DNA of 64,000 nt, from contig OZ253496.1 in the NCBI GenBank assembly GCA_965262115.1, positions 2,080,001 to 2,144,000 of the forward strand, written 5' to 3'. The notes under the pieces are model-generated. The model searched no databases. It had not been told where the DNA came from and worked only from the letters and a program-made list of their open reading frames with translations. Source of the DNA: Nitrospinales bacterium. GTDB taxonomy: Bacteria > Nitrospinota > Nitrospinia > Nitrospinales > VA-1. The position numbers and the translations under genes were made by a program. Positions 1,146 through 56,699 of the stretch are shown piece after piece (position 1 is the stretch's first letter; every line of letters starts with the position of its first letter).

Positions 1146-1185
1146 TGTGATATCTCCTTCACTTGTTTCATGCCCCGAAGGGGTA
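1146..1185 (-). repeat. 39-nt hairpin element (family C), intact copy
   Basis: Reverse complement begins TACCCCTTCGGGGCATGAA and ends ATATCACA; 1171..1185 is an exact empty copy of the IS110 target. Confidence 0.8.
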
Positions 1186-4434: not shown

Positions 4435-4616
4435 AACGTAAATCCTTTAAAAAACAATCTCTATTTTTCCTTGATATTGATTAGATTCAATTCTACCAGA
4501 AAAGATTCTCCAATCAACCGGGCCCACTAGCGTGGGAAGCAAAGGGCGCAACTCTTTCTGGCGAACGAAAATTATCTCGGCTTTAGGGGCCATTGCCCAG
4601 TTGCCCCCTCGCCAGA

Positions 4617-4744
4617 GAGACCTTTGCATAAGTCGAAAAATCGAAGAATCGAGATGCTTCGACAAGCTCAGCATGACAATATTGGGCCATTTTGTCATTC
4701 TGAGGAACAAGGTGACGAAGAATCTCGGGTTATGCAAAGCTCTC
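4617..4744. mobile_element. MITE family B copy (128 bp)
   Basis: TIRs GAGACCTTTGCATAA / TTATGCAAAGCTCTC; exact 9-bp TSD CTCGCCAGA (4608..4616, 4745..4753). Confidence 0.9.
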
Positions 4745-4759
4745 CTCGCCAGAGGGCGG

Positions 4760-9434: not shown

Positions 9435-9723
9435 CCACTCGGCGTGGGGCCAACGAGCAAACATTCTATAGCTACCCACACTTTCAGAGCGCATTTAACC
9501 GCTATTACCAGTTACCTGCGGAGGTTCTCCGCCCACTCGGCGTGGGGCCAACGAGCAAACATTCTATAGCTACCCACACTTTCAGAGCGCATTTAACCGC
9601 TATTGCCAGTTACCTGCGGAGGTTCTCCGCCCACTCGGCGTGGGGCCAGCGTGCAATCGCTTTTTCTGGCAGGCAAACGTGTTCTAGGCTCAACAAGCTA
9701 TTGTTAATTGCCTCCACGGCAAG
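9435..9723 (+). repeat. Tandem family A units: two 98-bp copies (one mismatch) plus a third divergent unit
   Basis: CCACTCGGCGTGGGGCCA at 9435, 9533, 9631; units 1 and 2 differ only at 9507/9605. Confidence 0.9.
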
Positions 9724-9852
9724 GAGAGCTTTGCATAACCCGAGATTCTTCATCGCGTACGCTCTTCAGAATGACAAAATGGCCCAGTATTGTCATGCTG
9801 AGCTTGTCGAAGCATCTCGATTCTTCGATTTTTTGACTTACGCAAAGGTCTC
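9724..9852. mobile_element. MITE family B copy (129 bp)
   Basis: TIRs GAGAGCTTTGCATAA / TTACGCAAAGGTCTC; exact 9-bp TSD CACGGCAAG (9715..9723, 9853..9861). Confidence 0.9.
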
Positions 9853-9957
9853 CACGGCAAGTGGCCAGCGTGACGCTGGACCCGGTGAGCAATGTCTTTA
9901 TTTTGCCGTCAATCGGACTCTTGGCTCTATGGTCTATTGCCAACTGGCCCCACGCCG

Positions 9958-9996
9958 TACCCCTTCGGAGCATGAAGACATAGGTTAAATTTCACA
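9958..9996 (+). mobile_element. 39-nt hairpin element (family C) inserted in a family A end
   Basis: Removing TACCCCTTCGGAGCATGAAG..TTTCACA restores CTGGCCCCACGCCG|AGTGGG, the exact reverse complement of the family A left end. Confidence 0.85.
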
Positions 9997-10484: not shown

Positions 10485-10612
10485 CCACTTGGTGTGCCAA
10501 CGCGACGCCGGACCCAGTGTGCAATGACTTGTTGAGTTAAGCTAAATGGCTAATTATTCCCCTTCTGGGCACGAGGAATTAGGAAGAATATAACGCAGCG
10601 GAGGTTCTCCGC
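10485..10612 (+). repeat. Family A unit carrying a family C insertion (10557..10595)
   Basis: Degenerate CCACTTGGTGTG left end, CCAACGCGACGCCGGAC module, 39-nt TTCCCCTTCTGGGCACGAGG..AATATAACG, right hairpin GCGGAGGTTCTCCGC. Confidence 0.7.
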
Positions 10613-21716: not shown

Positions 21717-21766
21717 AAGTCCAAAAACCTAAACCAACGAAGGGGTATTAGCGTCACCACCACATT

Positions 21767-21842
21767 TATCCCTGTAGGGCACGAAGTACCCGTGCCGGGC
21801 ATGAAGAGGTCACACGCGTCACAGCCACGAAAAAATATCACC
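21767..21842 (+). mobile_element. Family C element nested inside another family C element
   Basis: Outer 20 nt (21767..21786) + 19 nt (21824..21842) = 39 nt; inner 37-nt copy 21787..21823. Confidence 0.8.
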
Positions 21843-21855
21843 GCCCACCGGTCGG

Positions 21856-23532
21856 TTAACGAATAGTAAGTTTTTTATATTTTGACCTTCTGTTTTCTTC
21901 TTTGCCACCCAATTCCTGTTTGCGTTTTTCCTGATACTCCTCGAAGTTTCCTTCGAACCATCGCACTTTGCTGTTGCCTTCAAAAACCAGAAGGTGGGTG
22001 CAGATGCGGTCGAGAAAAAACCGGTCATGGCTGATAACCAGGACGCATCCGCTGAAATCAAGAATGGCGTTTTCGAGATTGCGCAAGGTGGTTACATCCA
22101 GGTCGTTGGTGGGCTCGTCCAGAAGCAGGACATTTCCACCCCTTCTGAGAAGTTTTGCCAGATGAACCCGGTTGCGTTCTCCGCCTGAAAGTTCCCCCAC
22201 TTTTTTTTGTTGGTCGGGACCTTTGAAATTGAACCGTCCGACATAGGCTCTGGAAACGATTGTTTTTCCCGCGACTTCGATATTCTCGGTGCCTCCGGTG
22301 ATTTCTTCGAAGACAGTGTTGTCGGGGCTTAGATTGTGACGGTGCTGGTCAACGTAAGAAAGTTTTACCGTGGACCCCAGCTTGAGAGTTCCGGAATCGG
22401 GTAGTTCTTCGCTGGCGATCATGCGGAACAAAGTGGTTTTGCCAGTGCCATTAGGGCCGATCAATCCGACCACCGCCCCACGAGGTACCGAGAAAGTGAG
22501 GTCTTTGATGATGGGCTCTTCTTCCTGATAGCCTTTACTGAGAGAGTCGGCTTCGATCACCTGTTCGCCGAGTTGCGGGCCGGGAGCGATCTGGATTTCA
22601 AGCGAGTTATCTTCCAGGTCTACTTTGCGTGCGGAAAGTTTTTCGTATTCGGTGATCCGGCCTTTATTGTGTTTGCGTCTGGCGCCAGGAGTTTCCCTCA
22701 ACCATTGCAATTCTTTTTCCAGTCGTTTTTGCAGGGTCGATGCGGATTTTTCCCTTCGCCTCAGGATTTCGGCCTTTTGTTCCAGCCAGGAACTGTAGTT
22801 GCCTTCAAACGGTTTGCCTTTCCCGCCTTCCAATTCAAGGATCCATTTAGTGATGTTGTCGAGAAAATACCGGTCATGGGTGGAGACGATGATGTTGCCG
22901 GGATAATTGGAGAGCGTGTCTTCCAGCCATTGTACGGTCTCGGCATCAAGATGGTTGGTGGGTTCGTCGAGAAGAATCATATCGGGTTTTTGAAGCAGCA
23001 GTTTGCAAAGGGCAACTCGCCGGGCTTCGCCCCCTGAGAGAGTTCCCGCTTTCTGGTCATCGGCAGGAAGCACGAGAGCATCCATCGCCACTTCCACCTG
23101 CCGATCCAGTTCCCATCCGTCCGCGGCGTCAATTTGATCCTGAAGTCGGCCCATTTTTTCCATGGCTTTTTCCATTTCCTCATCCGACATGGGTTCTGCC
23201 ATTTTGGCGCTGACCTCGTTGAACTCTTCAATCATTTTTTTAATGTCGCTAAAAGCCTGTTCCACATTTTCCCGGACGGTTTGCTCGTCGTCCAGAACCG
23301 GTTCTTGAGGCAGGAACCCGATCGTGGTTCCCTTTAAGGGCGTGGCGCGTCCATCAAATTCCTGATCCTCTCCTGCCATGATTTTAAGAATGGTGGATTT
23401 ACCCGATCCATTTTCTCCGACGATACCAATCTTGGCGCCATGATAAAAACTAAGATTGATTCCATTCAGCACCTCGTTACGTCCATAACGTTTGACCAGG
23501 TCCTGCATGGTGAAAATATATTCTCCTGCCAT
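21856..23532 (-). CDS. ettA: Energy-dependent translational throttle ABC-F protein
   Basis: Two ABC cassettes without TM domain; [42 protein letters not shown]. Confidence 0.92.
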
Positions 23533-34264: not shown

Positions 34265-34277
34265 TCCTTTAGCGGGG

Positions 34278-34406
34278 GAGACCTTTGCATAACCCAATAT
34301 TCTTCGTTGCAATAGCTCCTCAGAATGACAAAATAGCCTTTTATTGTCATGCTGAGCTTGTCGAAGCATCTCGCTTTTCTGCTTTATAGACTTACGCAAA
34401 GGTCTC
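34278..34406. mobile_element. MITE family B copy (129 bp)
   Basis: TIRs GAGACCTTTGCATAA / TTACGCAAAGGTCTC; exact 9-bp TSD TTAGCGGGG (34269..34277, 34407..34415). Confidence 0.9.
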
Positions 34407-34499
34407 TTAGCGGGGGGGGGGGCATTAGCAACGACTCTTCAAGCCGAGGTGATCGCTTGTTTGCCAGCAAAAGCTATTACCCCTTGTATGTTGTTCATA

Positions 34500-34710
34500 A
34501 GGGGAATTTGTAGTAGTTGTACCTGTGAGCCCTGTGGGAAGCCGGTTTTGTGTTTTCCACAAGCTCCCAGGATTTGATTCAGGGCACAATAGATCGTTTA
34601 CCCCTTGGGCTTTTAAGCCCGTCCCGAAGCGCAGATCGTTGTGTCCTATTTTGATTAACCCGAACAGTTGCCTGGGCCACTGAGCCCGCATCGGCAAGGC
34701 TGGGAGACCA
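34500..34710 (+). ncRNA. IS110 bridge RNA (predicted)
   Basis: 5' hairpin 34522..34571; target loop with TTACCCCT (34598..34605) and GTCCCGAAG (34621..34629); donor loop with ACAGTTGC (34664..34671) and GCAAG (34694..34698); RNA ends approximate. Confidence 0.85.
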
Positions 34711-34714
34711 AATT

Positions 34715-35665
34715 ATGAATCAGAAACCCCATTTTATTGGCATCGATATTTCTAAACTCCATCTGGATGTTGCTGACAGCATGACTCAAGAAACCTGGCA
34801 AACCGCTAACAATGAAGAAGGGATTGCTGGTTTGGTCGAGAGTTTATCCGCCTTAAATCCTCCATTGATCGTTTTGGAAGCCACAGGCGGCTTAGAGATC
34901 CCGTTGGCTTCGGCCCTGGTTGCGGGTCGACTGCCAGTAGCCGTGGTCAACCCGCGACAAGTTCGTGATTTTGCCAAAGCCACCGGGAAACTGGCAAAAA
35001 CCGATGTCATTGATTCTCTTGTGCTGGCCCATTTTGCCAAGGCCGTACGTCCTGAGGTCAGGAAAATCAAAGACGAAGAATCTCTTGAACTCTCAGCTCT
35101 GGTGACACGCCGTCGCCAGTTGATCGAGATGCTGACCAAAGAAAAAACCCGTCTAAAACAAGCTCCAAAATGGATATGTAAAGACATTAAGGAGCATATC
35201 GAATCTCTTAAAAAACGCTTGCGAAAAATCGATGGCGACCTTTCCAGAACCATCAAAAACAGTTCTGCCTGGCGTGAGCACGACCAGATTATACAAAGTG
35301 TTCCCGGTGCCGGTCCCGTTCTGGCTGTCAACCTCTTGGCCGGGGTTCCGGAACTTGGAGTTCTTAATCAGAAGCAAATCGCCGCCCTCATCGGTCTCGC
35401 TCCCCTCAATCGGGACAGCGGAAAGTTCCGGGGCCGCCGGTGTATCTGGGGCGGCCGCGCCAATGTGCGTGCCGCTTTATACATGGCCGCCGTCACTGCC
35501 ATGCAGCATAATCCCGTGATTCGTACCTTTTACACACGCCTCATCGAAAAGGGCAAACCCTTTAAAGTTGCCATTACCGCATGCATGAGAAAGTTATTAA
35601 CGATCATCAATACCATGATCAAAACAAAAACACTCTGGAATGAAAATCTCATTACCAGCACTTGA
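34715..35665 (+). CDS. IS110-family recombinase/transposase
   Basis: DEDD residues in IGID, LEATG, KTD..D; SG motif in RDSGK; KVAITACMRKL. Confidence 0.95.
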   Translation: MNQKPHFIGIDISKLHLDVADSMTQETWQTANNEEGIAGLVESLSALNPPLIVLEATGGLEIPLASALVAGRLPVAVVNPRQVRDFAKATGKLAKTDVIDSLVLAHFAKAVRPEVRKIKDEESLELSALVTRRRQLIEMLTKEKTRLKQAPKWICKDIKEHIESLKKRLRKIDGDLSRTIKNSSAWREHDQIIQSVPGAGPVLAVNLLAGVPELGVLNQKQIAALIGLAPLNRDSGKFRGRRCIWGGRANVRAALYMAAVTAMQHNPVIRTFYTRLIEKGKPFKVAITACMRKLLTIINTMIKTKTLWNENLITST

Positions 35666-35682
35666 CATTTAACACAGTTGCT

Positions 35683-35794
35683 TCGGGGCACGAGATACCC
35701 GTGCCGGGCATGAAGGCAAAGGTAAAATATCACATACCCGTGCCGGGCATGAATTTTAAGGAAGAGGACATCACAGCTATGAAAGAATATCACG
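35683..35794 (+). repeat. Family C cluster: remainder of the IS110-interrupted copy with two nested copies
   Basis: Outer copy 34478..34484 + 35683..35695 + 35776..35794 = 39 nt; inner copies 35696..35734 (39 nt) and 35735..35775 (41 nt). Confidence 0.8.
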
Positions 35795-50361: not shown

Positions 50362-50403
50362 AAAACGTTAATTCCTTTTTTATAAGGTTGGCTCCCCTTA
50401 GCA

Positions 50404-50626
50404 GAGAGCTTTGCATAAGTCGATAAAACAGAAAAGCGAGATTCTTCACGGAGCCTGTGCTGAGCTTGTCGAAGCATTCAGAATGACAGCAACAAGATTC
50501 TTCACTGCGTTCAGAATGACAATACTGGGCCATTTTGTCATTCTGAGGAACAAGGTGACAAAGACATGATATTTTTCTTTAAACTTCGTGCCCCGCAGGG
50601 GTAATCTTGGGTTATGCAAAGCTCTT
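50404..50626. mobile_element. Expanded MITE family B copy with family C insertion (50565..50603)
   Basis: Left TIR GAGAGCTTTGCATAA, degenerate right TIR, imperfect TSD (CCCTTAGCA vs TCCTTAACA); extra internal hairpins; 39-nt insert relative to the 4617 copy. Confidence 0.8.
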
Positions 50627-50699
50627 CCTTAACAGGGGAGGTAGCTAGCAAGAACCTTTTAAGCCGAGATAACTCTTTGCTTACCAGCAAAAGTGATTG

Positions 50700-56463: not shown

Positions 56464-56497
56464 CCTACAGATTGGGTTGAGGCTAGACTATAAAACA

Positions 56498-56665
56498 GAG
56501 ACCTTTGCATAACCCCGAGATTCTTCGTCACGTTGTTCCTCAGAATGACAAAACAGCCCTTTATTGTCATGCTGAGCTAGTGATACTCGACCTTTGCCTT
56601 CTTGCCCCGGAGGGGTATGTCGAAGCATCTCGCTTTTCTGCTTTATCGACTTACGCAAAGCTCTC
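56498..56665. mobile_element. MITE family B copy with family C insertion (56579..56617)
   Basis: TIRs GAGACCTTTGCATAA / TTACGCAAAGCTCTC; exact 9-bp TSD TATAAAACA; 168 bp = 129 + 39. Confidence 0.9.
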
Positions 56666-56699
56666 TATAAAACAGGGGCTCTTTCGGAAAAAAGCCTGG

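Follow-up and report, generated by a model that had tools for sequence, protein, structure and literature searches.

Two nested loci in the window

The window, a stretch of 64,000 nucleotides from a Nitrospinales genome, contains two loci at which copies of a short repeat, hereafter the element, lie inside one another. The genes around them encode a histidine kinase, an ATPase of ABC-F type, a peroxiredoxin and a deoxyhypusine synthase. A sequence-only reading of the window had proposed that a 39-nt element inserts into itself, and this self-nesting is real at both loci, where the copy boundaries are read directly from the sequence. At locus 1 (21767..21842), 20 nt of an outer copy are followed by an inner copy of 37 nt and by 19 nt of the outer copy. 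At locus 2, 7 nt of an outer copy, an IS110, 13 nt of the same outer copy, two inner copies of 39 and 41 nt, and a last 19 nt of the outer copy succeed one another. All three inner copies begin with one identical 19-nt head, as had been noticed, but they are not all 39 nt long as had been supposed, their lengths being 37, 39 and 41 nt. The features are listed below.

21767..21786, + strand: outer copy, bases 1-20, decayed hairpin head; also in the relatives G019 (L192) and G011 (L193)
21787..21823, + strand: inner copy, 37 nt, after outer base 20; a decayed 41-mer, as judged from the G011 orthologue
21824..21843, + strand: outer copy, bases 21-39 plus one extra C; the last base, G, complements C16
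34478..34484, + strand: outer copy, bases 1-7; its closing CT serves as the IS110 core
34485..35682, + strand: IS110 inserted into the element hairpin; transposase ORF 34715-35665 (PF01548 + PF02371)
34597..34629, + strand: predicted bridge-RNA target-binding loop within IS110 (fold and by-eye target comparison)
35683..35695, + strand: outer copy, bases 8-20
35696..35734, + strand: inner copy A, 39 nt; 7 exact copies genome-wide
35735..35775, + strand: inner copy B, 41 nt, of the usual +20 sub-family
35776..35794, + strand: outer copy, bases 21-39, a decayed form of the common nested tail
1146..1185, - strand: free copy, 40 nt, in a CCAC..GGCG/TGGGGCC-type host; CT at +3/+4
9958..9996, + strand: free copy, 39 nt
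10557..10595, + strand: free copy, 39 nt, decayed
50565..50603, - strand: free copy, 39 nt, in a GAGAT/TCTTC host repeat
56579..56617, - strand: free copy, 39 nt, A16/T39 sub-family, in a CTTCGACA/AGCTCAG host repeat

Because the outer copy of locus 1 carries one extra C in the window, its true last base is G21843. One letter, at 21841, is missing from contigs of runs X5, X7 and X10, and those of X5 and X10 show a break or a branch point at 21795, inside the inner copy. At locus 2, inner copy A was likely added after inner copy B, on the head side of the latter. Across the junction of these tandem copies (35722-35760), either strand can fold into a longer hairpin (z of -2.7 for one, -2.2 for the other).

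A short non-coding element present in hundreds of copies

The element, mostly 39-41 nt long, has about 400 copies in this genome (a 2.68-Mb single contig, 93.9% complete). The figure of 404 copies comes from a profile parser that strips IS110 and allows one flank change, and that gave 0 in a reversed-genome control. With a regex parser the number was 317, and the head motif had 219 matches against 0 and 1 in two Markov simulations. Given the head-motif simulations and the reversed-genome control, the copies cannot be due to chance. Each consists, in order, of a hairpin head, CAYGAA, a degenerate purine-rich middle, ATCAC and one final base. The ends are fixed, and the hairpin has 4 bp and a loop that reads TNC, or GNA on the opposite strand.

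By a crude gene call, 275 of 285 top-level sites are intergenic, and 355 of 378 insertion blocks are single copies (spaced inverted pairs being left out of this count). The copies had no bias in orientation relative to transcription (70 versus 78) or to replication (155 of 317 on the leading strand). Counted per 200 kb, they are densest close to the inferred origin (42-44, at around 1.4-1.8 Mb) and sparsest in the region of the terminus (7-13).

Among the matches listed for the element pattern, 79 of 80 named records are from Nitrospinota. The head pattern is present in 29 of 61 family genomes, with 0 to 327 matches per genome. A viral collection gave three element loci in two contigs; one of these, the 50-kb contig IMGVR_UViG_3300032272_000019, has two copies (L063, L064), and phages may ferry the element between hosts. 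No Rfam match was found for the element itself, and a literature search, most subscription papers lying outside its reach, returned no description of this family.

The element inserts into itself at a few fixed bonds

The profile parser yielded 57 internal nests: 25 at +9 (after base 9 of the outer copy), 15 at +20, 8 at +30, 8 at reverse 17 and one elsewhere, the last being a rearranged palindrome. Locus 1 lies below the threshold of this parser, and counting it gives 16 at +20. The sequence-only reading had held that the insertion position is fixed. Tallied over the genome, the offsets are indeed non-random, 56 of the 57 internal nests lying on four bonds, but the single position that it had named, +20, is one of four, and +9 is commoner. 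The idea of fixed bonds holds up against shared descent as well. The 46 nests of a first parser reduce to 11 lineages by the strictest count and to 34 by the loosest, and 10 of the 11 strict lineages occupy 4 of 76 possible positions, a clustering matched in 1 of 200,000 uniform simulations; the offsets also recur in relatives. The head end receives new copies too, and 23 blocks of adjacent copies were found.

Relatives were searched with an exact nest pattern, which misses decayed nests and covers the forward orientation only. By this pattern, the 22 matches in G019 comprised 9 at +9, 9 at +18 to +21, 1 at +30 and 3 unrelated, and the 14 in G011 comprised 7 at +9, 4 around +20, 1 at +30 and 2 unrelated; G033 gave no nests. 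In three genomes of other genera, no +20 nest was present among 44 matches, which were +9 nests, their stacks and a few other contexts. A reverse-17 nest is visible in one locus of a relative (L030). The same offsets were found in a set of 213 copies that includes loci chosen for their likeness to the window. In G026 and G019, +9 nests stack up to several levels deep, each level being a separate event at one bond. In G026 (L026, L042, L046, L050), a variant with a 10-nt head segment and a four-base loop occurs in such Russian-doll stacks. The spacing 0/9/20/30/39 looks helical, as far as three internal points allow.

Orthologous loci and nesting lineages

The orthologue of locus 1 in G019 has the same 37-nt inner copy. 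In G011, the middle of the inner copy is of the normal 41-nt kind, and a further insertion after base 9 divides this copy in turn; the odd middle of the 37-mer is therefore the result of decay and not of capture. The extra +9 insert, also seen in contigs of runs X5 and X10, makes this site polymorphic (present in G011, absent in G000 and G019). At the orthologue of locus 2 in G019 (L208), no IS is found; the first inner copy is the same, the second has a different, known middle, and the nested tail is the common one. In G033, the orthologous site has no element copy.

Both outer tails in the window resemble that of one widespread nested lineage, so the two loci probably come from one nested composite, which is the alternative that the sequence-only reading had itself offered. 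A single ancestral event for all nests is a different matter, since at least 2 and up to 8 separate lineages exist genome-wide at +20 alone. The intergenic gaps concerned seem to turn over quickly, to judge from their sequences: the gap at 21723-21925 of the window is matched in five relatives (L192-L196) by wholly different repeat mosaics, with a reverse-17 nest in G046.

Targets of insertion

When the flanks of a copy are joined, the empty host repeat is restored, and there is no target duplication. Among 250 distinct junctions, 134 have an empty-like counterpart, that is, a match at at least 6 of 10 junction letters; most of the other junctions are without one in this genome. The targets fall into 103 classes, or about 100 unrelated host contexts. 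A motif built from 90 non-self targets is weak (1.8 bits), and in leave-one-out tests it placed the true site among the top 3 of 61 positions in 40% of cases. When the element itself is scored, reverse 17 comes first of 40 on its strand, and on the other strand the head end comes third and +9 fourth; the scores at +20 and +30 are below zero. Nests at these last two bonds involve a single head sub-family, preceded by AAG or AAA in 9 of 11 host classes. It had been suggested that the insertion point is measured from the hairpin. Such a measure is needless for +9, the head end and reverse 17, which a weak local motif already ranks near the top. The suggestion keeps some ground at +20 and +30, where the motif scores fail and the AAG/AAA-following sub-family is used.

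A guide located in the variable middle was ruled out, as no element-flank covariation appeared over 236 weighted rows; the best value was 0.09, versus 0.49-0.56 for real pairs. A fold common to the targets was rejected as well, the mean pairing profile around the 103 target classes being flat.

Other repeats share these sites. A repeat of about 130 nt with GAGACCTTTGCATAA-type inverted ends holds two of the favourite host sites of the element; its copies in the window are at 4586-4750, 9718-9883, 34277-34419, 50403-50641 and 56497-56666. Several further repeat families stack within the same intergenic spaces of the genome. An IS3-like transposase element (family assigned by eye; for example G000:C1:695324-696172 and 1657572-1658420) has one fixed element site in 7 of 7 parsed copies (host class 7), and no empty version of it is present in the genome. 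About 10 further IS3-like sites also hold IS110, making three-level nests.

A two-base change beside insertions

In +9 nests, the right halves read CT where intact heads read GG (bases 12-13, three bases downstream). After an element end, there were 23 CT, 11 GG and 24 other loose-pattern matches; of 272 intact heads, 254 read GG and 1 CT. A second host has CT in 8 of 12 filled copies versus 0 of 82 empty ones. Of 24 CT-changed nests, 23 keep a junction flank base complementary to outer base 6, and GG>CT accompanies the new +9 insert in G011. The change is common in the same genus (12 CT, 3 GG); because it is nearly absent in other genera (1 CT, 25 GG) and is not found in AGGG targets, it is not a general property of insertion. 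What is observed is an association with the nests; the insertion reaction may be its cause. Four other origins were weighed by inspection and rejected: repair at a quasi-palindrome, a hit-and-run footprint of IS110, the scar of a MITE excision, and donor flank carried over; none fits both hosts together with the retained first base. Two other letters are confined to filled sites and may be founder effects: position +5 of +20 nests has C in place of A, and in another host G replaces C at position -2 (26 filled copies of 40, versus 0 of 22 empty ones).

Pairing between the ends

Two column pairs stand out in covariation, the strongest being 6:10 in the hairpin, and the second base 16 with the last base. 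Among 377 unique variants, taken from this genome and its relatives, so that pair counts among relatives are not independent events, base 16 and the last base are Watson-Crick complementary in 340, versus 174 expected (T-A 197, C-G 127, A-T 16). Among near-identical variants, 365 pairs differ by a compensatory change at these two positions; four control columns gave 0, 0, 6 and 3. Base 17 and the last-but-one base are G-C in 349 of the 377.

These two base pairs extend the hairpin stem only when the last base adjoins base 1. With the ends joined, the minus strand has an 8-bp stem, with one G.T and a GNA triloop, and a single strand of this form would be one state of the element. When the variants were folded as circles, base 16 and the last base paired in 162 of 230 for the minus strand and in 124 for the plus strand; these folds had energies near zero or above. 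Among the assembled contigs of the sequencing runs, no circle was seen. T.G wobbles at this pair outnumber C.A (18 versus 5), an excess that would point to the plus strand. A linear strand or an RNA could equally well make use of the end pair.

Arrays grow by addition of the element itself

It had been suggested that repeated insertion builds arrays of a conserved head with variable tails, loosely like repeat-spacer growth. This likeness does not stand, as the middles are shared sub-family variants and the longest array repeats identical units. At +20, the 41-mer either stands alone or is preceded, at its head, by identical 39-mers, making blocks of 2, 2 and 5, and in the only 5-copy array four units are identical. 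Middles are common to many copies (198 types among 317). A match of the middles to host or phage sequences had also been envisaged. Exact matches outside parsed copies exist for 26 of 194 middles, versus 3.2 expected, and 34 of 43 such matches are unparsed remnants of the element; for a 97-nt block, no phage match was better than E 0.9. Array growth is thus polar and adds self, not foreign DNA. A CRISPR-like array has a constant repeat and unique foreign spacers, which is not what we find here, and the element lends no support to a new system of that kind.

Candidate movers and the resident IS110

All 26 left ends and 26 right ends of IS110 border the element hairpin at the CT core, bar one left end, which lies inside another IS copy. 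This IS110 has recently expanded, with the copy at 34485-35682 of the window and about 25 near-identical ones in the genome, all in the element hairpin. Its left end, which has a weak sX15 match in Rfam, folds into a loop whose two unpaired strands match both sides of the hairpin (fold and comparison by eye). According to PMC11208160, the loop strands of bridge RNAs match the two sides of a target. In its CT core, folded non-coding left end and target-matching loop, the window IS110 is like the REP-targeting IS110 of IS621 type, as described in PMC11208160 and bioRxiv 10.64898/2026.03.19.712850; this likeness belongs to the IS110 parasite and not to the element. From the predicted fold, IS110 appears to be programmed against the element hairpin, and would be a parasite of the element that does not explain its spread. 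It makes a clean natural example of a predicted bridge RNA aimed at a host repeat.

PF01548 was found in 10 of 61 genomes and is missing from the element-rich G011, G028, G032 and G026. The Y1 HUH transposase (PF01797) gave 0 matches in G000, G019 and G033; it occurs in 13 of 61 family genomes without tracking element copy number, and in none of 10 Y1 loci examined was the gene flanked by the element. Ten ORFs bordered by copies on both sides included no mover candidate, being housekeeping or IS3 genes. The only reverse transcriptase in G000 is broken. None of four GIY-YIG loci examined was flanked on both sides by the element, and two sit among other repeats. By eye, no orphan head leading to a tail-closed ORF, as expected of an autonomous parent, was seen, and no candidate enzyme was recognised among the viral ORFs at L063 and L064.

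Discussion

The reading that we favour, with a probability of about 0.55, is that of a non-coding element of 39-41 bases which inserts at a few fixed bonds, in other repeats as well as in its own copies, without duplicating the target, and which likely moves as single-stranded DNA with its ends held in one stem. A nicking-joining enzyme acting in trans would recognise the hairpin and the ATCAC box, and would cut or seal at the joined ends. The strand would be inserted at weakly preferred sites, roughly T/A-rich on the left and N-S-Y-N-C on the right. As nests at +20 and +30 spare the outer hairpin and the end pair, a whole composite could travel as one unit. Together with slippage and gene conversion, such travel would multiply a few original nestings and give arrays of identical units. 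The lack of a lagging-strand bias counts against movement of the IS200/IS605 type, which predicts such a bias. It is conceivable, though doubtful, that a distinct chemistry is at work, in which a 40-base single-stranded dumbbell splints its own ends for sealing and is integrated by an enzyme outside the Y1, IS110 and reverse transcriptase classes; two bases of the target, three positions away from the junction, would be replaced in the process, and the base next to the junction would be kept. If so, target choice by the sub-families would vary via the variable pair and the loop of the hairpin.

Could the nests instead be a few old insertions, spread by gene conversion, composite movement and slippage, with offsets and flank changes merely inherited? 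All 15 nests at +20 hold one 41-nt inner sub-family, and conservative clustering leaves two lineages at +20, one at +30 and one at reverse 17. The tail GCTACG follows an inner end 10 times and its own head 0 times, chimeras occur (for example a +9 left half joined to a +30 right half), and the second inner middle at the IS110 locus differs between orthologues. Yet the stacks of +9 nests call for several events at a single bond, one orthologous site is polymorphic for a +9 insert, the host contexts number about 100 (103 classes), and one founder cannot give a junction base that complements outer base 6 in 23 of 24 CT-changed nests. We consider founders and recombination an unlikely explanation. 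An RNA intermediate, whose transcript ends pair and which is reverse-transcribed or reverse-spliced into nicked targets, the flank changes coming from a co-transcribed donor flank, strikes us as quite improbable. It would account for the excess of T.G over C.A wobbles at 16:last (18 versus 5) and at 6:10, and for the junction letters being shared somewhat more by close variants (0.52 at left -1, versus 0.26 in distant ones), and such a route is said to have been proposed once for the SDRs of Nostoc. However, the reverse transcriptase of G000 is broken and transcription-orientation bias is lacking, the A2.C14 mismatch, which is invariant, and the GNA triloop suit a minus strand made of DNA, and the first right-flank base is not inherited (identity 0.06-0.29 in close variants).

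That a known transposase is the mover, either the resident IS110 with its CT core or a now-lost REP-associated or IS200-type Y1 enzyme, seems highly unlikely to us. IS110 ends do border the element (26 left, 26 right, one left end excepted), and the flank change creates CT, at which both enzyme types act according to PMC11208160 and PMC8266576. But the match of the IS110 guide loop to the hairpin is that of a target, whose core lies at bases 6-7 and not at the bonds of self-insertion; PF01548 is confined to 10 of 61 genomes, the element-rich G011, G028, G032 and G026 being without it; element junctions have neither a CT core nor guide-like flank covariation; and the three richest near-complete genomes have no Y1 gene. 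As for repeat-spacer growth, in which a constant head and captured variable sequence are added at one end, additions are indeed polar (41-mers alone at +20, extra 39-mers upstream, on the head side). We nevertheless give it hardly any credence: the middles are shared and follow a degenerate consensus, their outside matches are for 34 of 43 remnants of the element, the phage search with the 97-nt block gave nothing better than E 0.9, the longest array is one unit four times over, and the odd 37-mer is a decayed ordinary copy.

Among the closest known systems are the small dispersed repeats (SDRs) of Nostoc. They are reportedly about 20-27 nt long, and Elhai et al. 2008 are said to have described them nesting in other repeats and in themselves, with a structure revealed by compensatory change; we know of no mover for them. 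Repeats of this type are less than 100 nt long and dispersed, insert precisely in other repeats and in themselves, and have a structure with compensatory changes; the element is of the same type. It differs in that it uses several bonds for self-insertion, on both strands; the pairing of its ends and the change of two flank bases are further features of the element. SDR1-8 of Nostoc punctiforme are very short, dispersed and lineage-confined repeats (PMC4390886, PMC2884548, PMC3116915), and SDR5 inserts precisely at a fixed bond of HIP1 (PMC4390886). The element shares with SDRs its very small size, dispersion, confinement to a lineage, precise insertion in repeats and in itself, and compensated structure; it differs in length (39-41 nt versus about 20-27) and in phylum. 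SMR-A and the PATEs of Haloquadratum walsbyi, according to PMC3119063, have no target duplication or coding capacity, favour palindromes of mobile repeats, and have a mobilisation termed "enigmatic"; SMR-A is about 110 bp with terminal inverted repeats, and PATEs have palindromes near both ends, related to IS605 ends. Like them, the element is non-coding, makes no target duplication and prefers other repeats; unlike them, it has a single hairpin, no inverted ends and no TnpA partner that we could find.

Other classes fit less well. With REPs and REPINs, as described in PMC8266576, PMC3733652 and PMC3116915, the element shares a short intergenic hairpin, hundreds of copies and use as an IS110 target, and some REPs lie inside target palindromes. 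It has, however, no GTAG/CGTC tag by the stem, no RAYT gene and no cognate TnpA-REP (Y1) flanked by repeats; its ends are fixed without a CT junction, and its tail is long and asymmetric. Its outline recalls IS200/IS605 in the hairpin near one end, the absence of target duplication and the base outside the hairpin that complements the end base (PMC8266576), but there is no fixed target tetranucleotide or guide-target covariation (motif of 1.8 bits), no TnpA was found, and lagging-strand bias is lacking. A MITE has terminal inverted repeats and target duplication, and the element has neither; a miniature derivative of IS110 needs the core dinucleotide at both ends and a donor-loop match, and the element lacks both. 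The element is like the Nostoc SDRs and SMR-A, and is set apart from REP-RAYT, IS200/IS605, MITE, IS110 and CRISPR systems.

To our knowledge, no mover is known for very small mobile repeats that land in other repeats. This family offers handles on the problem: exact ends, a compensated end pair, mapped hotspots, insertions polymorphic between strains and a possible two-base footprint. They define a substrate for pull-down or in vitro joining, and a signature to be sought in similar elements of other phyla. A 40-base insertion system that leaves no duplication would also interest tool makers.
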